A DNA stretch of 61,972 bases, filler included, from an uncultured bacterium (GCA_964637655.1; 7 parts of 7 records of this genome joined end to end with filler, not necessarily neighbours in it); one strand, 5' to 3'. Positions 883-53,269 are shown, numbered from the whole stretch's first letter. A program made the numbers and translations. The notes: generated by a model not told the origin, from the sequence alone.

Positions 883-2175
883 TTGCCGCGACGGGAACAG
901 GAGCAGGCCATGCAGGCATTCGACCTTGACGCCTTTCGCGCGTGGTGCGCGAAGCGCGAACTCGGCTTTACCCCGCTGCAGGTGGAAGCGGTGCGCGACA
1001 TCATCGCCGCCGTGCGCGCGGAAGGTGATGCCGCGCTCTGCCGCTTCGGGCAGCAGTTCGACCGCTGCGATTTGCGCGGCAAACCGCTCCGTCTCCCCGC
1101 GTCCGCGTGGCAGGATGCTACCGTCGCGCCGGAACTCGACAGTGCGCTGCGCCTCGCTGCCGCGCATATCCGCGCCTACCACGAAAAGCAGCGCGAAACC
1201 TCATGGCACACCACCGCGGGCCCGCTCGGGCTCGGGCAGCGCGTGACGCCTCTCGACCGCGTCGGCATCTATGTGCCCGGCGGGAGCGCGCCGCTCGTCT
1301 CCACCCTGCTCATGGCCGCCATTCCCGCGCAGGTAGCGGGCGTGAAGGAAATCGTCGTCGCCACGCCGCCGCGCGCGGACGGGAAACTGCATCCCGCCAT
1401 CGCTGCCGCGGTGCGCCTGCTCGGACTGACCGAAATCTACCAGCTGGGCGGGGCGCAGGCGATTGCCGCGCTCGCCTACGGCACCGCCACGGTCAAGCCC
1501 GTGGACAAGATTGTCGGGCCGGGGAACGCCTACGTCGCCATTGCCAAGCAGTTCGTTTTCGGGCAGTGCGGCATCGACATGGTCGCGGGACCGAGTGAAG
1601 TGATGGTCATCGCCGACGGCAGCGTCAGTCCCGCCTGGGTGGCGGCTGACCTGCTCGCGCAGGCGGAACACGACCCGCAGGCGCGAGTCGCGGTCATCGC
1701 CTGGGAGCAGCCGGTGCTCGACGCCATCGCCGCCGAAACGGATCGGCAGCTCGCCGCGCTGCCGCGTCAGGAAATTGCCGCGCCGGCCATCGCCGCGAGC
1801 GTCAGCGTCCTCGTGCGTGACGCGCAGCAGGCCGCCGAGGCCGCCAATGCCATGGCCCCCGAGCATCTCGAACTGGCGGTGGCACAGCCCGCGCCGCTCC
1901 TCGCGCTGATCCGCCATGCCGGCGCCATTTTCGTCGGCGGTTTCGCCTGCGAGGCGCTCGGCGACTACATTGCCGGACCCAACCATACGCTGCCGACCGG
2001 GGGCACCGCGCGCTTCTTCTCGCCGCTCGGCTGGTACGATTTCGTCAAGCGCTCGTCCGTCATCAGCGCGACCGATTCCCCCGCGCTGCGCGACCTGGCG
2101 CGCGCCGCGGCTGCCATCGCGCGCGCCGAGGGGCTCGACGCGCACGCCCGCGCGCTCGACCTGCGCGGCGAATGA
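883..2175 (+). CDS. hisD: Histidinol dehydrogenase (start may be 910)
   Basis: GIYVPGG, DKIVGPGNAYV, DMVAGPSE, QAEHD, PEHLEL, GDYIAGPNHTLPT. Confidence 0.97.
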   Translation: MPRREQEQAMQAFDLDAFRAWCAKRELGFTPLQVEAVRDIIAAVRAEGDAALCRFGQQFDRCDLRGKPLRLPASAWQDATVAPELDSALRLAAAHIRAYHEKQRETSWHTTAGPLGLGQRVTPLDRVGIYVPGGSAPLVSTLLMAAIPAQVAGVKEIVVATPPRADGKLHPAIAAAVRLLGLTEIYQLGGAQAIAALAYGTATVKPVDKIVGPGNAYVAIAKQFVFGQCGIDMVAGPSEVMVIADGSVSPAWVAADLLAQAEHDPQARVAVIAWEQPVLDAIAAETDRQLAALPRQEIAAPAIAASVSVLVRDAQQAAEAANAMAPEHLELAVAQPAPLLALIRHAGAIFVGGFACEALGDYIAGPNHTLPTGGTARFFSPLGWYDFVKRSSVISATDSPALRDLARAAAAIARAEGLDAHARALDLRGE

Positions 2176-8891: not shown

Positions 8892-8991
8892 NNNNNNNNN
8901 NNNNNNNNNNNNNNNNNNNNNNNNNNNNNNNNNNNTTAATTAATTAANNNNNNNNNNNNNNNNNNNNNNNNNNNNNNNNNNNNNNNNNNNN
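8892..8991. other. Artificial contig spacer; same at 17797-17896, 26689-26788, 35532-35631, 44362-44461, 53170-53269
   Basis: Identical 100-nt N blocks with TTAATTAATTAA linker. Confidence 0.99.
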
Positions 8992-17796: not shown

Positions 17797-17896
17797 NNNN
17801 NNNNNNNNNNNNNNNNNNNNNNNNNNNNNNNNNNNNNNNNTTAATTAATTAANNNNNNNNNNNNNNNNNNNNNNNNNNNNNNNNNNNNNNNNNNNN

Positions 17897-26688: not shown

Positions 26689-26788
26689 NNNNNNNNNNNN
26701 NNNNNNNNNNNNNNNNNNNNNNNNNNNNNNNNTTAATTAATTAANNNNNNNNNNNNNNNNNNNNNNNNNNNNNNNNNNNNNNNNNNNN

Positions 26789-35531: not shown

Positions 35532-35631
35532 NNNNNNNNNNNNNNNNNNNNNNNNNNNNNNNNNNNNNNNNNNNNTTAATTAATTAANNNNNNNNNNNNN
35601 NNNNNNNNNNNNNNNNNNNNNNNNNNNNNNN

Positions 35632-35708
35632 TTGTGTTCAGCATGTACGAACCATTCGGCATAATCCGGAGTTCGGCATTATGACGATTATGCCGCATTC
35701 GGCATAAG
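35632..35708 (-). promoter_or_regulatory. attI-like region at the contig edge
   Basis: Repeated TTCGGCAT(A/T)A and inverted TTATGCCG boxes; minus strand ends GCTGAACACAA at the break, just upstream of an intI remnant. Confidence 0.45.
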
Positions 35709-35867
35709 CGGCATTCATTCGCCACGCATTTGCTGGAAAACGGCTACGATATCCGTTCCATCCAGAGTTTGCTCGGTCACACTGACATCAGGACGACAAT
35801 GATCTACACGCACGTCGCCGCCAAGAACCGACTGGGGGTCAAATCGCCGTTGGATGAAGCCACTTGA
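35709..35867 (+). pseudogene. intI: Integron integrase C-terminal remnant
   Basis: [49 protein letters not shown]; in-frame TGA at 35682, so the N-terminus is missing. Confidence 0.85.
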
Positions 35868-36168
35868 GTGTTCCATTCGTGCTACCGGTGCAAAAACGAT
35901 AGTCTCGGTTGACCTTCTCCCAAAATTACGTCCAAGTTGATATGGGAAATAGCCGCCCACTCCCCTCACGCGGGGGCGGGGAGATGTCGCCGGGCAAGCC
36001 GCGCGACAACTCCCCGCTGTCGTGGTGATGCCCTGGGCGTGCGCACAGATCGTGCGCGAGAAGAGCGCACGAACTGTGGCATCCGCTCCAGCGCCGGGCA
36101 TTCTGCCCGGCACTTTTGCGGACTTCGCGCCCGGGCACCACCCCGCCCCGCACCCCGGCACGGGCGGC

Positions 36169-36640
36169 CAATCTACTGGCTACCACTGAGATTCCTTAGC
36201 GTTTTCAGCGCCATATCACCCAACAATCCCACTTGCCTACTAGAACCAATGCCGCCTACACTCGCGCAGGCGATGGAAATAATAGTGGTTTCCTCATTAT
36301 TGCATAACAGGATCCTCATAAATGAGATGGAAAGAAAGAACCCCGGCATTTCTGCCGGGGCTTGTCTGCATACCTGAATCTGGCTCGAGGAATGAATCCT
36401 CGTCCACCGGTTTCCCTCACCCTCACCGCATACGGGCAAGGATCTCGATACAGGCGCATGCCGACGTAAACATTGTATCACGTTACTGATTTTTCTGCCA
36501 CGATATTATCACATATTATGCAATACATTATAAAAAAATATTTTCGGCATCATTTTGCTGGAGTGTTGTTTCAAACAATCTACTGATCACCACCATTGAG
36601 ATTCCCCTGCGTTTTTAACGCCCTTTTCTTTCAACAATCA
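36169..36640. repeat. Imperfect direct repeat of about 65 bp (36169-36230 and 36576-36640)
   Basis: CAATCTACTG...ACCA.TGAGATTCC...GCGTTTT.A.CGCC...CAACAATC in both copies. Confidence 0.7.
36339..36363 (-). terminator. Hairpin terminator with T-rich tail on the minus strand
   Basis: CCCCGGCA-GAAA-TGCCGGGG followed by TTCTTTCTTT. Confidence 0.6.
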
Positions 36641-36851
36641 CGCAATCAATAACATCCCCCAAGGTCTGAATCCCACGTTCTAGACTGGCACTATGCATTT
36701 GATATAGTGGGAAAATATGTCTAATAGAGCGGCAAAGTGGGATAAAAACGACATTATTCTTGACAAAAAAAGCCTATTGTGGTAATATACAGTAGGACAT
36801 GCACCAATGCACTAACCGCTAGCGCGGTTAGTACAGGAAAGGCGGGCGGAT

Positions 36852-39800
36852 ATGCTGAATTGTCGCAAGATAACATCCGGTAATGAAACCGCCGCCGCCG
36901 ACTACTATGCTACCGAAAACCGCTACTATTCCGATCAGGCCCAAGGTGGGCTGAGGATTCAGGGAACGCTGGCCGCTTACTTGGGGTTCCAACCCGGTGA
37001 ACAGATAACCGCCAACGAGCTGGCAGCGCTTCTTGCCGGTCGGGATCGCAGCGGGGAAGATGTTCTTGCTAAGCGTGAGAAACACCGGGTGTCGGCGTAT
37101 GACCTTACCTTTTCCCCGGACAAGTCTGTCTCTGTGGCTGTGCTCGATGATCAACGTCTGATCGATGCGCACCACCGAGCCGTATCGCTGGCTATGGCTG
37201 AGATCGAAGCGCGATACCTTCGCGGCCGGGATCGCAGCGGAACGAACCATGAAGGTGATGGCCGGGCGGCCTGGGCTACGGCTACGGACAACCTGTCGAG
37301 ATCTGGCGACCCACATCTGCACACGCATGCGATTGTTCTCAATATGAGCGAACGCGGGGGCAAAGTCGCGGCGCTTGATGGGAAAAAGCTCCTGCGCCGC
37401 GATGTGGTCATGTTGGGGGGAGAAATATATCGCCAAGTGCTCAGGCGGGAGGTATCTGCTCTCGGATACTCTACCTCAGAAACTAAAAACGGGTGGCGTT
37501 TGGATGCTGTCAGCATTGACCTCTGCCGGGAACTGTCAAGCAGGAGAAACGAAATCACTGCGGCGTTGGGACGGGCGGCGCTTAAAAAGGGCGATGGGGT
37601 AATTTTGTCGGCTCGTGAGCGCGAACGCATTGGGATCGCAGGGGGGACGGTTGAAGAAGTAGGGGAAAGGATTATTACGATAACCGCGGCGAATGGATGC
37701 CGTGCCGATATCCCGATCGCGGGGACGGATGCCGCGGCGTGGGCGATGACTCGTGTTGCTAAGGATAATTCTCCCGGTAGCGCGGAAGCAGTCCAGCACT
37801 GGCGCGCTGTTGCAGCAAAGTACAAGACCTCTGTCGAACACGAGCGCCAGCGCGCTGCAATCGAATACGCGCAATGGCGTGATGCCGCGGCATATTCATT
37901 GTGGGCGCAGCATGGGAGGGAAGGCAAAGCGGAAAGCGAACGTGAAGCATGGGGGCGTGCTGCTGTGCGCGCGACCGCAAGGCAAGCCTGGGCGAGCCGG
38001 GAAGCGATGCTGTATGAGTACTTGCGTGAACGCGGTGACGAATTGCTTACGATTGCGCAGGCGGAAGAGCGGCTTGAACAGGCAAAACAAACGGGTATTC
38101 TTGCGCACGACGGCGCCGGACGCTTTACGTCGTGGGATCTCGTTGAGGCGGACAGAAAGTGTGTGCTGGCGCTGGATCATGCGGTGTCGGCTGAATTGGT
38201 GCGTGCCGACGCCGATAAACTGCTTGCCCGGGTGACTGCCTGCGATAGTGGCAGAGTCCCGCTGGATAGCGAGCAGCAGGAGGCCGTGCGAGCAATCCTT
38301 GCCTCAGAGCGCGGTGTGGTGGCGATACAGGGAACGGCGGGTGCCGGTAAGTCGACTATGTGCCGTGCTTTGAAAAGCGCGGCCGATATCGCCGGGATAG
38401 AGGTTATCGGGGCAAGTGTGGCCGGCAAGGCTGCCGCGAACCTGCGTGATTCGTCAGGGATTCAGTCCTACACGATGGTTGGCTTGCTGAATAACTACGA
38501 TAAACAGCAACCGGGTAGCAGGAAGCCACGTGTTGTCGTCGTTGACGAAGCCAGTATGGTTGGGACACGGGCGATGGCGCGATTGCTTGAACGGGCCGCA
38601 GCTCATGGTGATAAGATTGTCCTGATGGGTGACCGTGCGCAGTTGTCTGCGATCAATGCCGGCAGACCCTTCGAGAGAATCCAGGAGCAGGCGGCTGTGC
38701 GCGGCGAACTGCTGACACTGACGAGCAACCACAGGCAGACCAATCCTGTGCTGCGCGAGGCGGTGGAATATGCCCGCAGGGGGCAGATGGCGGAAACGAT
38801 CAGGGTATTGGATGAAGCCGGTGCTGTGATCGAATACGATAGCGAAACGGACAAGAATACAGGGATCTCCCGCCATGAAGTGATTGCGGAAATTTTCAAA
38901 CGAGGGGACCTGGTACTGACCTGCACCCGAACCGATCGCGACAGGCTGAACGCCGCAATTCGCAGCCGGCAGGTGCTGTCAGGCGAGGTTGCCGCCGGGA
39001 GCGCGACGGTTGTTACCTATAAAGACGAAGATGGTATCGAGGTCGATAAGGGAATCTCTCTGGGTGCTGGGGATCGTGTTGTATTCAAGGAGAATGACCG
39101 CCGCTTTGGCATCTGCAATGGCGACACGGGAACTGTCGTCAGTATGTCGGGCGACGGTGCGCTGGATGTCCGCCATGATGACGGTCGCGAAATATCCATG
39201 GGTAATTATCGGGCGCTTGACCATGGATACGCCCTGACAACTGCATCAGCACAGGGACAGACATGCCAGCGCGTTATTATCGATGCGGCAACCGCGCATG
39301 GTGTCCATGACGCCCGTTCCGTGTACGTGCAAATATCTCGTGCACGTGAGCAGGCGCTTATATTCACGGACGACAAAGAACGCCTTCTGGAAAATGTTCA
39401 GGATATGGCCGTGCCCATGGATACACTCGGGTTTATTGCGACGACTATGGCGAGCGCGATAACACCGGAACATGAATTGCTTGCTGCAAACGGTAACCAT
39501 GTGGTGCACACACACTCACAGGCGACGCGGCGACCTGTCGTGAGTGCACAGACAAGTTCGTCGTCTGTTGCGGTGCCGACTTTCGAACAGTTCCGGAAAA
39601 TGCCGCTCAGGCAGCAGCGTGCCGAATGGATACGGCGCGAGCGGGACGCATACACCGACAGCTTGACCGGCGCTCGCAGTCGCGCATGGGCGGAACGTCA
39701 CTCCATTATGCGGATGGAAACCATCGATGTGCACGGTGGGAAAGTCGTCAGGCCGGTCATCGCCAACGGATTTCAGGGGATGATTGATATTGACAGATTC

Positions 39801-40883
39801 AAACTGATAAATGACACGTGGGGGCATGCATACGGGGATGCATTCCTCCGTCGCACCGTTGAATATTTGCAGGAGAAAATGGTCGGGAAGGCAGAAGTCA
39901 TTCGCTTTGGCGGGGAGGAAATTCTGATATGGCCAAGGCCAGGGGTTTCTAACCATGCGGTAGTCGCAGCAGTCGACAGTGCCCGGGAAGAGTTCCAGAG
40001 GACACTCATCAATACGCCCGATGGCAGACGCAGGTTTAGTTTCAGCGCGGGATTTGGATTGACACAGCAGGCGGCGGACGAGGCGTTATACAACGCAAAG
40101 CACGCGGGGCGCAACCGCGTGTACACAGAGGAGGGAATGTATGGAAGACAAAGACGGGCAGAAGTGTATCCGGAGAGATCATACCGGGAGCAGGAAAACG
40201 CCCCCACCTCGGGAATATCGTCCGACGTGGGAGGAACGATTGGAAACGGATTATTGGTATCGCCAGATAGGGAGGATCGCCGGCCTGAACAAGCTGAAGT
40301 AGCAACAGCAAGGCAGGCATTGAACGATGCGCGCGAAGTCGGCAGACGTGCTGATGCTGAGCATAGTGCACGGCGGATCGCACATCTGCAGGGGCGTACA
40401 TATCGTGTTGGGGATTCCATGACCCCAACGAAAGGTACGCGTCGTGCGGCGGAACAGCAACCGAGAAAATCTGTCTGGACGATAACGCGGGAGTCATATA
40501 TTGAGCAGGCAGGGAAGAATGGCGCTGATGTTGGTGCAGCCGGCAAGATGTATGACCGCCTCTGCTCTCGCATTGACATTAGTGCTGAGGACAAACATGA
40601 AATCGTGAAGGCAGCATTGGGGATGTACACGAACGACCGTGACAGCCGCAGAATGATGCGCACTAAGTATGTTTGCGAGGATTATCGTATCGATGATGCG
40701 GCGAGGCGTACGAAAGCGGCGCGCGCTCCCGTACCCAATGAAGCGCGCAATGCTCATGATGACTCCGTGCAGAAGATGGTGCAGAACAATCTGCCTAAGA
40801 GTATTCGCGCGGTGCAGCAACAGCAGGAGGGGGAAGATAATTACTCCAAACAGCACGTCAGTGAAAATGAGGCATCCCAGTAA
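36852..40883 (+). CDS. MOBF (TrwC/TraI-like) relaxase-SF1 helicase fused to a GGDEF domain
   Basis: DYY...RYY, YDLTFSPDKSVS, SRSGDPHLHTH; helicase GTAGAGKS, VDEASM, GDRAQL, HRQ, GYALT..AQGQT, YVQISRAR; GGDEF at about 39650-40125. Confidence 0.92.
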   Translation: MLNCRKITSGNETAAADYYATENRYYSDQAQGGLRIQGTLAAYLGFQPGEQITANELAALLAGRDRSGEDVLAKREKHRVSAYDLTFSPDKSVSVAVLDDQRLIDAHHRAVSLAMAEIEARYLRGRDRSGTNHEGDGRAAWATATDNLSRSGDPHLHTHAIVLNMSERGGKVAALDGKKLLRRDVVMLGGEIYRQVLRREVSALGYSTSETKNGWRLDAVSIDLCRELSSRRNEITAALGRAALKKGDGVILSARERERIGIAGGTVEEVGERIITITAANGCRADIPIAGTDAAAWAMTRVAKDNSPGSAEAVQHWRAVAAKYKTSVEHERQRAAIEYAQWRDAAAYSLWAQHGREGKAESEREAWGRAAVRATARQAWASREAMLYEYLRERGDELLTIAQAEERLEQAKQTGILAHDGAGRFTSWDLVEADRKCVLALDHAVSAELVRADADKLLARVTACDSGRVPLDSEQQEAVRAILASERGVVAIQGTAGAGKSTMCRALKSAADIAGIEVIGASVAGKAAANLRDSSGIQSYTMVGLLNNYDKQQPGSRKPRVVVVDEASMVGTRAMARLLERAAAHGDKIVLMGDRAQLSAINAGRPFERIQEQAAVRGELLTLTSNHRQTNPVLREAVEYARRGQMAETIRVLDEAGAVIEYDSETDKNTGISRHEVIAEIFKRGDLVLTCTRTDRDRLNAAIRSRQVLSGEVAAGSATVVTYKDEDGIEVDKGISLGAGDRVVFKENDRRFGICNGDTGTVVSMSGDGALDVRHDDGREISMGNYRALDHGYALTTASAQGQTCQRVIIDAATAHGVHDARSVYVQISRAREQALIFTDDKERLLENVQDMAVPMDTLGFIATTMASAITPEHELLAANGNHVVHTHSQATRRPVVSAQTSSSSVAVPTFEQFRKMPLRQQRAEWIRRERDAYTDSLTGARSRAWAERHSIMRMETIDVHGGKVVRPVIANGFQGMIDIDRFKLINDTWGHAYGDAFLRRTVEYLQEKMVGKAEVIRFGGEEILIWPRPGVSNHAVVAAVDSAREEFQRTLINTPDGRRRFSFSAGFGLTQQAADEALYNAKHAGRNRVYTEEGMYGRQRRAEVYPERSYREQENAPTSGISSDVGGTIGNGLLVSPDREDRRPEQAEVATARQALNDAREVGRRADAEHSARRIAHLQGRTYRVGDSMTPTKGTRRAAEQQPRKSVWTITRESYIEQAGKNGADVGAAGKMYDRLCSRIDISAEDKHEIVKAALGMYTNDRDSRRMMRTKYVCEDYRIDDAARRTKAARAPVPNEARNAHDDSVQKMVQNNLPKSIRAVQQQQEGEDNYSKQHVSENEASQ

Positions 40884-40913
40884 ACAACCAGGGGATGACG
40901 GGAGGAAAATTGA

Positions 40914-42893
40914 ATGAATACGTATGGTGGCGGGGATGGCATTGGTGGTACGATCATGATGGCGATGGCCGTGGGTTTGGTGATTTTGAGTATCGGTATT
41001 TACGGAGTATACCAGTCTACCGACATGCTTGATCATGGTGCAACGTGGTGGTCTGACTCCCTTGTGTACTCAGCCGGAGCGAGTTCTAGCGGAATCTTCC
41101 GTTTTGCCGCGCGGAGTGCCGATGCGGTCGGCCGAGTGTTCGCGGCGACAAATGAGTTTGCGGGGATCTGCTGGATATTGCTTGCGCTCATTTATTTGTC
41201 AATTACGGTGTATCACAGAATATATGGTACGGAACCACGCGAGACTGTCTCTGTAATATGCGGCATATCAGCAGTGTTGTCCGTATGTTGCGGGATATTG
41301 TTTATTGCCGGAATTTCTGGTGAAATAACTGAGTATACAATCGCGTTGTATGTTGCGGCAGCCGCGTTGCTCAATGCAGCGAATATGTATTTCGCGATAG
41401 ATACGTACGTATTCGCCCGGCCGATAACCAATCTGTATCGCATCATGCGAGGGAAGTCGATTATCGATATCGATGCGCCCAATGCCAACAAATTCGGGGG
41501 TATACTTATTGGGGAAAAGGATGATCAATTGCTACCGCGTATCATCAGGCGATTTGCTGCTCCNNNNNNNNNNGAAAGACTCGACTCCGGGGAGGAAATT
41601 CGTCTGCCTTACGAGAATCTCGCCAATGGAATATGTGTGGTGGGTGCGAAAAATGCCGGGAAGAGCAGAACGCTCTTCCAAATCATAGAGCAGGTTCGCG
41701 CACGTTGGCCGGATATTATTACAATCGTCGTTGATAAAAAGGGTGGCGAGTTTTGCAACCGCTATTACGACGAAGAGCGGGATCTCATTCTGGCCCCACA
41801 CGACAGACGGTCGGCATGGTGGGATATCATGGCCGACTTCGTAAGGTGGCCGCAATTGATCAACGTAGCGGTGATGGCGGCGCTGGAATCACGGATGTCG
41901 TCACATGGTGACAACAAGATCTGGCATAGTGCGTCCTTGCGGATCATTGGGTCAATATGTAAGCGTATCGTGGCAAAAGGAGCGATCACGAATGCGGCGG
42001 ATGAAATCGCCAGGAGTCTGCGGAACTACAAGGAGGAGGCAGAAGATAACAATAATAAAACGGCACAGTCGAAATACGAAACGCTTGTGGAAGGAATCGG
42101 AGACCTGATACGCTGGTGTCTGCCGCCCGCCAACGCCAAGACAGCATACGGCATTGACGAATTGTTGAAGCGAACCGGGTTTCTTTTCCTAATCGATCCT
42201 CCCGATGGGACCGCAGAGCAACAGGGGAGCATGAATGTCCTGCTCGCGTGCTTGCTCAGAAGGGCATTGTCAGGTCCGGATACCGACGCTCTGCATCCTA
42301 GGGTGTTGTTCGTAATCGACGAGATCAACACGATCAATATGGAACAGTCACTCGAAACCTCGTTGTACGCTACGGCGAGATCTAAGGGGATAATTATCGT
42401 CACGGCTGGGCAAGTCATACCCGATGACCAAGCGGAGCGAAAAGTACAGTGGTGGTCGCAGAGCGAATACCGCATTGTCATGAAACTCATTGATGAAGGC
42501 AGCCGCCGGCGGGCTACCGCGGCGATTGGCAAACAGTTGTATGACGAAAAGACGATCAGCAACTCCACGTTCGGATTCATCAGTGGCATGAGGAATACCA
42601 CTCAACTCCAGGAGCGATACCATTCTGCATTTGAGGAAAACTACTGGCATCGGCTGCAGCCAAGGGAGTTCGTACTCATTTGCAACACCATCTGCACCGG
42701 GCGTGCTATCGAGGTTCCCATTGTGCAGTCAGTCGCAGGTGGGAATTGTGGTCAGATGCAGTACGATATAAGGACCGATGTGCTCGATTGGCAGGACAAA
42801 TTGGACGGCAAAGGCCGCATTCATGCAGGAGTGGGAGCAGGGACTAATGACAGTACGGAGGAGGACAACAATGAGACTGATCGCGCAGACTGA
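40914..42893 (+). CDS. Type IV coupling protein (TrwB/TraD-like); spans a 10-N gap at 41564-41573
   Basis: N-terminal TM helices; VGAKNAGKS; VDKKGGEF...LILAPHDRRSAWWD; FVIDE; ARSKG...AGQ. Confidence 0.85.
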   Translation: MNTYGGGDGIGGTIMMAMAVGLVILSIGIYGVYQSTDMLDHGATWWSDSLVYSAGASSSGIFRFAARSADAVGRVFAATNEFAGICWILLALIYLSITVYHRIYGTEPRETVSVICGISAVLSVCCGILFIAGISGEITEYTIALYVAAAALLNAANMYFAIDTYVFARPITNLYRIMRGKSIIDIDAPNANKFGGILIGEKDDQLLPRIIRRFAAXXXXERLDSGEEIRLPYENLANGICVVGAKNAGKSRTLFQIIEQVRARWPDIITIVVDKKGGEFCNRYYDEERDLILAPHDRRSAWWDIMADFVRWPQLINVAVMAALESRMSSHGDNKIWHSASLRIIGSICKRIVAKGAITNAADEIARSLRNYKEEAEDNNNKTAQSKYETLVEGIGDLIRWCLPPANAKTAYGIDELLKRTGFLFLIDPPDGTAEQQGSMNVLLACLLRRALSGPDTDALHPRVLFVIDEINTINMEQSLETSLYATARSKGIIIVTAGQVIPDDQAERKVQWWSQSEYRIVMKLIDEGSRRRATAAIGKQLYDEKTISNSTFGFISGMRNTTQLQERYHSAFEENYWHRLQPREFVLICNTICTGRAIEVPIVQSVAGGNCGQMQYDIRTDVLDWQDKLDGKGRIHAGVGAGTNDSTEEDNNETDRAD

Positions 42894-43110
42894 CAAGCAG
42901 ATTGATATCCTTGAACGCGAACTCGAAAAGTTGCGGGAACGGCGTATGGCAAAAGTTGAGCAACTGACGATTCGCATCGAGCGGCTGAAGAAAACAAAGG
43001 ACGTTCTTCTTGGGCCTGACAACGACATTGACGTCAAGCACAGACTCAAAGCACTGCGTAAGGCGAGGGCAATTATGGCTGCGCTGACCGGGGAAAGCGC
43101 GCCGGCGTGA
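42871..43110 (+). CDS. Small coiled-coil protein
   Basis: GGAGG RBS; heptad-like charged sequence; overlaps the coupling protein end. Confidence 0.6.
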   Translation: MRLIAQTDKQIDILERELEKLRERRMAKVEQLTIRIERLKKTKDVLLGPDNDIDVKHRLKALRKARAIMAALTGESAPA

Positions 43111-43169
43111 TATTGTAGCGTATGTGCAATGACTTACGCGAAATTTACGCGAATATCACGGAAATGCCC

Positions 43170-43198
43170 TTGACAGAATCCTGAATTGCGGTAGAATA
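43170..43198 (+). promoter_or_regulatory. Sigma70 promoter preceded by a TTACGCGAA direct repeat
   Basis: TTGACA-17bp-TAGAAT; TTACGCGAA twice at 43134-43153. Confidence 0.7.
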
Positions 43199-43284
43199 CA
43201 CGTGTCACGCACGGAAGTCGCCCACCAATTACGTCACGGATACCACCCCGGCAACGTCACCCATCACATAGCCGAGGTGCGGGC

Positions 43285-44361
43285 ATGGCGACACTGGCGG
43301 CAGTAGCCAGGGCAGCGGGAGCAGTTGCAGCGGCACCGTCCGCCGTGTCCGCACCACCCCCTAACGACAAGACGACCACGCAGGACGCCCCCCGGCGCAA
43401 AGTCGGGGGGTGTCACCTTGCAGACAGCGCCGCGATCCGCGCCGCGCTGGCTGCGTCCCGGAGTTTCGCCCGGGCGGGGAAGCAGAAGCCCCGCCCGAAA
43501 TACCGCCAGGCGGACGTGATCGAACGAACAAAGGCCGGGATCCAACCCGAAACAACTAACGATCGTGTACGGCGATACGGCGCGACGATATACGTTGACC
43601 CATTTATGACCATCGCCACGATGTCCGCCCGCACCGGAATCCCTAGGGCGGCACTTTGCCGCTACCTGTCCTCGGCACGGAAAAAAGGGTATTTGCAGAC
43701 CGTCCGCAACCAGCAACACCACGGCGACAAGCGCGCAAAACGCTGTGGGATGTATGTCATGCACCCTCATTTTGTTGCCCTGCTTGGCCTGGACGCAAAA
43801 GCGTATCGCAAGCGCGTCCAGGCTGCGGCAGCCGTCTTGCGCAGTGTCCGGCACCTGGACGGGCGCAAAAACGCGGCGGCCTGGCGCGCGTTCTGCCGCA
43901 GATCGTCCCTGCTGTGCCTGTGGCTGGGGATCCCGTTTTTTTTGGCGGATGAAAAATCAAAATCTCATAGCATTGGGTGTAGACCAAATAAGGAAAAAAG
44001 CATACCCCTACGGGGTAATGCTTTTTATCCTTCCGCATCCACGACCGGCGGCGGTGGGGACGCCGCCTGCGTCGTGGGCGGCGGCGAGGCGGGGCGCGAC
44101 GGTGAAGCCGTCGCCCCGCCCGCCGGGAAAGGAGCAAGGGCGCCTGACACGGAGGCCGGCGCGCGCGCGGGGCGCGCGGGAATAACGTCAAAGGCACCGG
44201 CCGGCGGGATGAACGGAAAGCACCTGCGGGCTTTCCTGGGCGACAAGGACACACCCGGCGATCCGCTCGGCCTGCTGCGGGCTGCGGTCGGCATCAGGAC
44301 AAAAGCCGGACGCGACCGGATCCGTACGCGGCTTACCGACGACCATGCCGCTTTGCTGGCC
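43285..44361 (+). CDS. Basic winged-HTH protein, putative replication initiator, 3'-truncated
   Basis: TIATMSARTGIPRAALCRYLSSARKKGYL HTH-like segment; context in a mobile element. Confidence 0.45.
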
Positions 44362-44461
44362 NNNNNNNNNNNNNNNNNNNNNNNNNNNNNNNNNNNNNNN
44401 NNNNNTTAATTAATTAANNNNNNNNNNNNNNNNNNNNNNNNNNNNNNNNNNNNNNNNNNNN

Positions 44462-53169: not shown

Positions 53170-53269
53170 NNNNNNNNNNNNNNNNNNNNNNNNNNNNNNN
53201 NNNNNNNNNNNNNTTAATTAATTAANNNNNNNNNNNNNNNNNNNNNNNNNNNNNNNNNNNNNNNNNNNN

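Follow-up and report, generated by a model that had tools for sequence, protein, structure and literature searches.

Can the protein that leads DNA out of a donor cell during conjugation also take a signalling enzyme with it? The question is raised by one gene in a 61,972-nt stretch of DNA from an uncultured bacterium (GCA_964637655.1), referred to here as the window. On an 8730-nt scaffold within this window, a single open reading frame (ORF) encodes a conjugative relaxase-helicase that also contains a GGDEF domain, the domain of the diguanylate cyclases that make cyclic di-guanosine monophosphate (c-di-GMP). As judged from sequence, two known kinds of protein, a MOBF relaxase-helicase and a GGDEF domain of the type found in polyvalent proteins, are joined in a new combination that would link conjugation with the biology of injected effectors. 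The answer favoured here is a tentative yes, given somewhat less than an even chance: an active, feedback-free diguanylate cyclase, whose activity and delivery we infer, would ride into the recipient on the relaxase.

A relaxase-helicase with a GGDEF module in its linker

The gene is translated without internal stop into 1343 residues, the uninterrupted frame claimed in a preliminary description of the locus, and the three domains expected from that description (TrwC, AAA_30 and GGDEF) were all matched by Pfam (Table 1). The relaxase domain scores 172 bits against Pfam TrwC (cut-off 25) and 160 bits against the NCBIfam MobF model NF041492 (cut-off 100). Among solved structures, phmmer aligned it with F TraI (PDB 1p4d, 4.7e-23) and TrwC (1omh, 3e-17). 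Two tyrosine pairs, Y18/Y19 and Y25/Y26, lie in the segment DYYATENRYY (residues 17-26), in register with the YY...YY of F TraI. The histidine triad HLHTH (155-159) is part of DPHLHTH (153-159), which aligns with EPQLHTH of F TraI. The columns of the tyrosine pairs and of the histidine triad are invariant in the alignment of homologues. The domain is followed by a single superfamily 1B (SF1B) helicase in which Pfam recognised AAA_30 at residues 471-662 (6.7e-48) and UvrD_C_2 at residues 791-836, and which also aligned with the TraA_Ti and RecD2 models of NCBIfam. Its Walker A (GTAGAGKST, 494-502) and Walker B (VVVDEASM, 562-569) motifs are both intact. The preliminary description had recognised MOBF relaxase motifs and one SF1 helicase, and Pfam, NCBIfam and alignment to PDB structures agree with it. 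Family models above their cut-offs, tyrosine pairs, histidine triad and fused SF1B helicase together identify the protein as a member of MOBF.

This organisation is that of TrwC from R388 and of TraI from F and pCU1, in which an N-terminal TrwC-type relaxase with paired tyrosines and a histidine triad precedes an SF1B helicase, with a TrwB/TraD-type type IV coupling protein (T4CP) encoded next to it. Unlike a close variant of a plasmid relaxase, the fusion protein is only 24-30% identical to the relaxases of PLSDB plasmids. The closest genome-borne relatives of the relaxase (31-40% identity) come almost all from metagenome-assembled genomes (MAGs) of Elusimicrobia (loci L081-L085, L087, L092 and L102); another relaxase-relative locus, L086, is from a Rhodospirillales MAG.

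Pfam GGDEF covers residues 977-1089 (7.5e-18; 65.3 bits, cut-off 23.8), the NCBIfam model TIGR00254 gives 71.6 bits (cut-off 37.4), and the diguanylate cyclase model PRK09894 aligns over residues 934-1091. Every motif quoted in the preliminary description, up to the last one, ADEALYNAKHAGRNRV, was found where it had been placed. The reported absence of an RxxD inhibitory site (I-site) also held, the positions -9 to -6 from the GG being occupied by VGKA. The roles of the individual active-site residues of GGDEF domains are known from the PleD literature. The DxD, N, GHxxGD, RxGGEE and KxxGR positions of the module align with those of the solved active cyclases DosC (4.4e-14), DgcZ, DgcR, PleD and WspR. 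The Asp of GHxxGD, which is replaced in the Hypr GGDEFs that make cyclic GMP-AMP (cGAMP), is retained.

An AlphaFold2 model of the module, computed with a 30-sequence alignment, has a mean predicted local distance difference test (pLDDT) score of 92.6 and a predicted template modelling (pTM) score of 0.84. Its top Foldseek matches are solely diguanylate cyclases (DgcB, DgcZ, DgcR, PleD, DosC and WspR), with probability 1.00 and template modelling (TM) scores of ~0.62-0.65. Model scores, predicted fold and active-site residues all place the module among GGDEF cyclases; the I-site, a common and non-defining feature of this group, is missing. The module is consequently predicted, from motifs and model, to be a diguanylate cyclase that is active and escapes feedback by its product.

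Comparison with the closest relative, P0121, shows the GGDEF module to be inserted: P0121 has relaxase, helicase and the same conserved C-terminal tail without a GGDEF, and in the query the module sits in the linker that leads from helicase to tail. P0121 (1159 aa) is the closest of 119 listed homologues and is 49% identical over relaxase and helicase. It realigns to the tail of the query with 39% identity over 118 aa (BLASTP, E 1e-19). From helicase to tail, P0121 has ~170 domain-free residues vs ~360 residues in the query, and the excess of ~190 aa is the GGDEF module. The tail has no Pfam or NCBIfam match, it is present in one of the 119 listed whole-protein homologues, and a tail-only search of a 5.8-billion-protein set returned only the query protein itself. 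A predicted complex of the tail with the T4CP scored 0.00 in two uncontrolled runs, which speaks neither for nor against contact. The contig of P0121 (locus L001) also encodes homologues of the T4CP (52% identity) and of ORF-X, the ORF further downstream (62% over 222 aa). From these alignments it is therefore a sister element that has the same backbone minus the cyclase.

Coverage across the helicase-GGDEF junction, a check suggested with the preliminary description, was examined with contigs assembled from single sequencing runs. Four runs of one wastewater study contain 34-49% of the sampled words of the scaffold; since they may include the source data of the window, they count as separate assemblies and not as independent samples. 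The contigs of these runs (X1 to X4) are short, have a depth of 2-6 and match the window at 100% identity; no RNA data set was among the runs listed. The passage from helicase to GGDEF is bridged in X1 (39336-39800) and X4 (39189-39752), and that from GGDEF through the linker to the tail in X3 (39834-40331), X4 (39945-40237) and X2 (40167-40563), so that both junctions are bridged in the four-run set. No joints or indels were found inside the ORF in the single-run contigs, and the ORF is free of N. The GC and third-position GC (GC3) contents of the GGDEF segment, 0.56 and 0.63, match those of the rest of the gene (0.53-0.61 and 0.48-0.61).

Lineage of the GGDEF domain and the search for similar fusions

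A HMMER search with residues 850-1343 against 1.84 billion representatives gave 102,486 matches with E up to 0.001, among which the fusion protein alone matched over the full length of the query. When the best 150 matches were re-scored per domain, the top single domains were those of P0246, P0251, P0247, P0283, P0286, P0291, P0273 and P0292, and five of these eight were supplied by giant polyvalent proteins. A large family of proteins of ~700-830 aa (P0240-P0245, P0002-P0004 and similar), with two GGDEFs in tandem and no further Pfam domain, came top by whole-protein score because its two domains add up.

Pfam scans of 14 long proteins among the 150 separated nine giants from five ordinary PAS/GAF/EAL sensors. 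The giants have 1661-4123 aa and a low-scoring GGDEF (48-90 bits). This domain is combined with LPD38 in four of them (P0247, P0292, P0360 and P0368), with InPase in two (P0246 and P0286), with SLT in two (P0273 and P0368), with SNF2 in two (P0246 and P0368) and with Zeta_toxin in one (P0348); P0347 has no other recognisable domain. The InPase domain follows the GGDEF within ~100-130 residues, both in P0246 (GGDEF 974-1087, InPase 1170-1304) and in P0286 (826-980 and 1108-1244). Such a pairing would fit a nucleotidyl transfer that releases pyrophosphate (PPi), which the InPase would remove.

An IQ-TREE phylogeny built from 61 domains places the query in one clade with P0251 (293 aa) and with every one of the nine polyvalent domains (UFBoot 97/SH-aLRT 94; SH-aLRT 86 in a quick run). 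Four rare characters accompany it. The query has a spacing of 43 from DxLT to DxD, which includes an insert before beta1, and seven of the nine clade members have 39-48; other domains have 35 in 176 of 239 cases and reach 39 or more in four of 239. The spacing from SxG to YxxK is ~10 residues shorter than usual, 15 in the query and in eight of nine members, against a median of 25 in the others, of which 7 of 212 have 16 or less. GGEEI, as in the query, is found in five of nine members plus P0251 and in one of 253 others. Finally, the RxxD I-site missing from the query is missing from all nine members (0/9) and present in 118 of 253 others. The exceptions are P0273, which lacks the insert, and P0368, for which the spacing anchor motif failed. 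On account of the tree clade, the shared indels, the GGEEI and the missing I-site, the query domain is assigned by sequence to the divergent GGDEF lineage of giant polyvalent proteins, and not to the ordinary signalling GGDEFs. Scans of viral contigs with P0246 and P0247 returned no relatives, and the phage context of the clade rests on PMC5512222.

Like the polyvalent GGDEFs described in that work (PMC5512222), the domain lies within a polypeptide that combines several enzymes, is encoded by an invasive element and would be expected to reach the target cell along with the DNA. Its carrier differs, being a relaxase and not a giant with SLT, SNF2, LPD38 or InPase. The fusion protein combines three enzymatic domains in one polypeptide of a conjugative or mobilisable element, which resembles a polyvalent protein in principle, and its transfer is presumed from the behaviour of MOBF relaxases; no LPD or MPTase/peptidase domain, of the kinds typical of polyvalent proteins, was detected in it. 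In the available part of the article, LPD38 and InPase are assigned to phage-type, virion-packaged polyvalent proteins only, and no relaxase-GGDEF fusion is named (PMC5512222).

No second relaxase-GGDEF fusion was found from either side, in searches that were word-filtered or limited to the matches listed and by which absence is not proven. Unlike the query, none of the 119 listed homologues of the whole protein has PF00990 or a phmmer match to the GGDEF part. Conversely, no relaxase occurs among the 119 and the 148 matches listed on the GGDEF side. A tblastn search of PLSDB with the whole protein gave at least 5000 records, none of which covers 80% or more of it. In 160 related loci, GGDEF-like sequence was seen in two, on the opposite strand and unfused. 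The module alone matched ordinary cyclase annotations in the best 40 of 2320 PLSDB records and in the best 25 of 54 phage records. No account of a fusion of this kind came up in the literature searched, from which the figures and supplements of PMC5512222 were absent. The preliminary description had known of no characterised fusion between a relaxase and a diguanylate cyclase, and the homologues, PLSDB, the related loci and the literature all leave this statement standing.

Cargo on a relaxase is in itself known, MobA of RSF1010 being a relaxase-primase. Natural precedents of this kind serve DNA processing. The fusion described here carries a signalling enzyme, for which no description as relaxase cargo was found in the literature searched.

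The scaffold and its other features

A repeat scan showed that the window consists of seven contigs of ~8.7-8.9 kb in a row, seemingly in order of length. They are separated by six artificial spacers (44 N, then TTAATTAATTAA, then 44 N), and any inference on gene neighbourhood across one of these points is invalid. The size of the gene-bearing scaffold is also that of the single contig on record for the fusion protein (P0001). The flanking genes first taken as context belong to other contigs: an ABC transporter, half of a DUF2339 gene and a 5'-nucleotidase gene lie beyond the spacers and were rejected as gene context. A 'low-GC island' around the gene was rejected as well, as the region is a separate scaffold by itself. 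The GC content of this scaffold is 52-57%, vs 64-70% for the other contigs of the window, so that it may represent either a plasmid of the organism in the bin or a contig that was mis-binned. No near-identical DNA was found in plasmids, and Rfam gave no match on the scaffold at E up to 1. The scaffold is best explained as the transfer module (relaxase, coupling protein, probable Rep) of a mobile element, small and plasmid-like, that stems from a wastewater community.

At the scaffold start lies the 3' remnant of a tyrosine recombinase gene; an in-frame stop precedes it and the scaffold end truncates it. Contig depth at 35632-35922 is 5.4-11.4, vs roughly 0-6 elsewhere, a ~2-3-fold excess. The data suggest that the scaffold start is a repeat common to other elements, and this sharing would explain the assembly break.

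No convincing gene was found in the ~1 kb between this remnant and the relaxase gene. An imperfect direct repeat of ~45 nt (36170-36212 and 36578-36622, 410 nt apart, 81% over a 31-nt core) is a candidate for iterons or for binding sites of relaxosome accessory proteins. On the minus strand, two divergent promoter-like sites (36534-36505 and 36501-36472) lie upstream of a strong terminator-like hairpin (36339-36362; 10 pairs, 7 of them GC, with a T-rich tail). A minus-strand transcript of ~110-170 nt without convincing ORF, for instance a control RNA, could be made from there; it has no Rfam match. Promoter-like sites number seven in the scaffold vs 6.1 expected by chance, and position alone favours the one that stands 64 nt before the relaxase ATG. 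The inverted repeat that follows it is possibly an operator or a part of the origin of transfer (oriT).

The T4CP gene starts 30 nt downstream of the relaxase gene. Its product matches TrwB_AAD_bind (4.8e-23; 82 bits, cut-off 20.5) and TraG-D_C (24.4 bits, cut-off 22), and TraD_Ftype at 2e-14, which is far under the cut-off of that model. A Walker A-like GAKNAGKS is present in the alignment, and the NTPase domain is of TrwB/TraD/VirD4 type. The gene contains a 10-N gap (41564-41573), which an X4 contig bridges with three fewer bases and with the frame kept; the homologue of locus L001 is one residue shorter at this place. Further downstream, ORF-X has only a weak MarR_2 match and otherwise belongs to no Pfam or NCBIfam family. 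Its look-alikes by protein-atlas features are winged helix-turn-helix (wHTH) and Phage_P1_RepL clusters (score 0.94), and its product may be a winged-helix, RepL-like replication initiator of a small plasmid. Upstream of 43084 and again upstream of 44157, contigs of run X2 diverge, and several single-base variants cluster near the 3' end of the scaffold (44143-44327 in X1, X3 and X4). In these samples the ORF-X region thus seems to occur in several contexts or strains.

Table 1. Features of the fusion gene, of its scaffold and of the window (positions counted from the first letter of the window).
Feature	Residues	Nucleotides	Strand	Remarks
Gene-bearing scaffold		35632..44361		8730 nt; spacer-bounded on both sides; sole DNA physically linked to the gene
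Artificial spacers, six of 100 nt		8892-8991, 17797-17896, 26689-26788, 35532-35631, 44362-44461, 53170-53269		filler between contigs
Tyrosine recombinase, 3' remnant		35685..35867	+	last ~40 residues of catalytic domain; Pfam Phage_integrase 7.8e-15, profile 133-170/172
Promoter-like site before relaxase		36760..36788	+	TTGACA-17-TAATAT with TG extension; 10/12
Inverted repeat		36808..36835		12 nt, 92% complementary, 4-nt loop; between promoter-like site and start codon
Relaxase-helicase-GGDEF-tail, whole gene	1343 aa	36852..40883	+	stop-free translation
MOBF (TrwC-type) relaxase domain	14-322	36891..37817	+	Pfam TrwC 2e-50
SF1B (RecD-like) helicase	471-836	38262..39359	+	AAA_30 + UvrD_C_2
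Inserted GGDEF module	916-1100	39597..40151	+	leading helix, beta-hairpin insert, complete GGDEF fold
TDSLTG	935-940	39654-39671	+	
Beta-hairpin insert	~953-970	39708-39761	+	within module
IDIDRFK	978-984			
INDTWGHAYGD	986-996			
RFGGEEI, with GGEEI	1020-1024			
SAGFG	1065-1069			
Last motif (given in text)	1075-1090	end at 40121		
Conserved C-terminal tail	1213-1325	40488..40826	+	common to P0121
Type IV coupling protein (TrwB/TraD-like)	659 codons	40914..42893	+	
Promoter-like site before ORF-X		43170-43197		11/12, near-consensus
ORF-X	at least 359 aa	43285..44361	+	truncated by scaffold end

Possible roles of a relaxase-borne cyclase

MOBF relaxases cut oriT, stay covalently on the 5' end of the cut strand and are pumped by way of a type IV secretion system (T4SS) into the recipient. 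Because they exit the donor covalently bound to this transferred strand (T-strand), a cyclase fused to one of them would be carried along. It would then refold in the recipient and raise c-di-GMP before the genes of the element are expressed, and so play the part of an early 'establishment' effector, comparable with the injected polyvalent proteins. Catalysis needs two GGDEFs to pair, and this pairing could be provided by self-association of the relaxase or by the helix that precedes the domain; in the preliminary description, relaxosome assembly was the proposed source of dimerisation, and promoted adhesion or arrested motility the presumed effects. When the DNA is transferred the relaxase goes with it, and its passage requires unfolding (PMC5826034); Cas proteins worked in recipients when engineered as relaxase fusions (PMC11513951). 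GGDEF domains are found in polyvalent proteins, and such proteins were proposed to enter the host with invading DNA and their GGDEFs to act upon invasion (Iyer et al. 2017; PMC5512222). By analogy, the membership of the query domain in the polyvalent GGDEF clade lends indirect support to delivery into the recipient.

Several points weigh against this recipient-side reading. The fusion is a singleton, with one cluster, one member, one scaffold and a contig depth of 2-6x in four runs of one study, and for that reason selection for it is without support from conservation. The scaffold carries no T4SS channel genes. No oriT or nic site was found; the inverted repeat at 36808-36835 and the 45-nt direct repeat lie upstream of the gene, with no nic site assignable, and the transfer competence of the element is presumed. 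A folded extra domain needs unfolding and could equally hinder transfer. The delivery of the LPD38 and InPase polyvalent relatives is itself a prediction, made for proteins called phage-type in the available text of PMC5512222. The clade was sampled from the 150 hits nearest to the query, a biased sample, and five of its rows deviate in composition. Ile replaces the Phe of GGDEF, as is common in the polyvalent clade. Finally, no biochemical or genetic data were found on the fusion protein or on the polyvalent GGDEF clade.

The main rival is a role in the donor, where the cyclase would make c-di-GMP locally, at the relaxosome and coupling protein, upon assembly on oriT, and so tune transfer or favour mating through surface attachment and aggregation; its delivery to the recipient would then be irrelevant. 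The donor, where the protein is made, is also the first place where it is active, the T4CP gene lies directly downstream of the fusion gene, and the missing I-site suits a locally gated enzyme equally well. Moreover, stand-alone cyclases and effectors of c-di-GMP are often encoded by mobile elements beside their conjugation genes. Examples on integrative and conjugative elements (ICEs), plasmids and islands are DgcK and DgcL of SXT/R391 (PMC6416229) and an island cyclase (PMC10672970), and the element described here resembles them in that a mobile element supplies c-di-GMP synthesis. Nevertheless, the stand-alone cyclases are separate genes with ordinary GGDEFs, expressed after establishment, whereas the present domain is covalently joined to the relaxase and clusters with the other lineage, that of the giant polyvalent proteins. 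No PilZ, EAL or HD-GYP partner is encoded on the 8.7-kb scaffold, and a donor role would not require the cyclase to be covalently linked to the only protein that passes out of the donor. A donor-side function is therefore held to be unlikely on balance.

A lesser rival concerns the product. The domain might yield a cyclic dinucleotide of another kind, pppGpG or some linear oligonucleotide, or do no more than bind a nucleotide, and so for example disturb cyclic-nucleotide immunity in the invaded cell. The lineage is divergent, with 48-90 Pfam bits vs ~115-160 for the single-domain canonical relatives scanned, and a beta-hairpin insert and a shortened loop lie near the active site. The Cas10 palm is a distant relative of the fold, and weak Pfam Cas10-Cmr2_palm2 matches were seen on relatives. 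A possible interference of such domains with the nucleotide signalling of the host is suggested in PMC5512222. However, every residue used by solved cyclases to contact GTP and Mg is retained, including the Asp of GHxxGD, and the top of the fold search consists of diguanylate cyclases only; a different product thus appears quite improbable. Least probable of all is a chimeric assembly or a recent, unselected and functionless fusion in one low-abundance genome: the protein is a singleton on short, low-depth contigs of one study and its scaffold has a 10-N gap and repeat ends, but the separate assemblies of the four runs are identical across both junctions with no alternative joint, the frame is open over 1343 codons with clean domain borders and conserved parts on both flanks, the catalytic residues are all intact, and in GC and GC3 the GGDEF segment matches the gene's other parts.

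Delivery into the recipient on the relaxase remains the preferred reading, for a case limited to one low-coverage metagenomic scaffold that lacks a T4SS and to a fusion that is not conserved. If it is true, the cyclase on the relaxase would offer a natural example of a recipient being manipulated at the protein level during mating, and would tie conjugation to the poorly understood GGDEFs of injected polyvalent proteins. With ~190 residues and a confident model, the module is in addition a tractable test object for the polyvalent GGDEF lineage. A broader and rather doubtful proposal is that one feedback-free GGDEF lineage serves as a shared 'takeover' effector, used by phages in injected giants and by this element on its relaxase. 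Were this the case, c-di-GMP or a related nucleotide would flood the invaded cell within seconds, before transcription, so that motility would be frozen, aggregation promoted, competitors blocked or cyclic-nucleotide immunity jammed. Relaxases would then be natural vehicles for effector delivery, beyond their part as DNA pilots.

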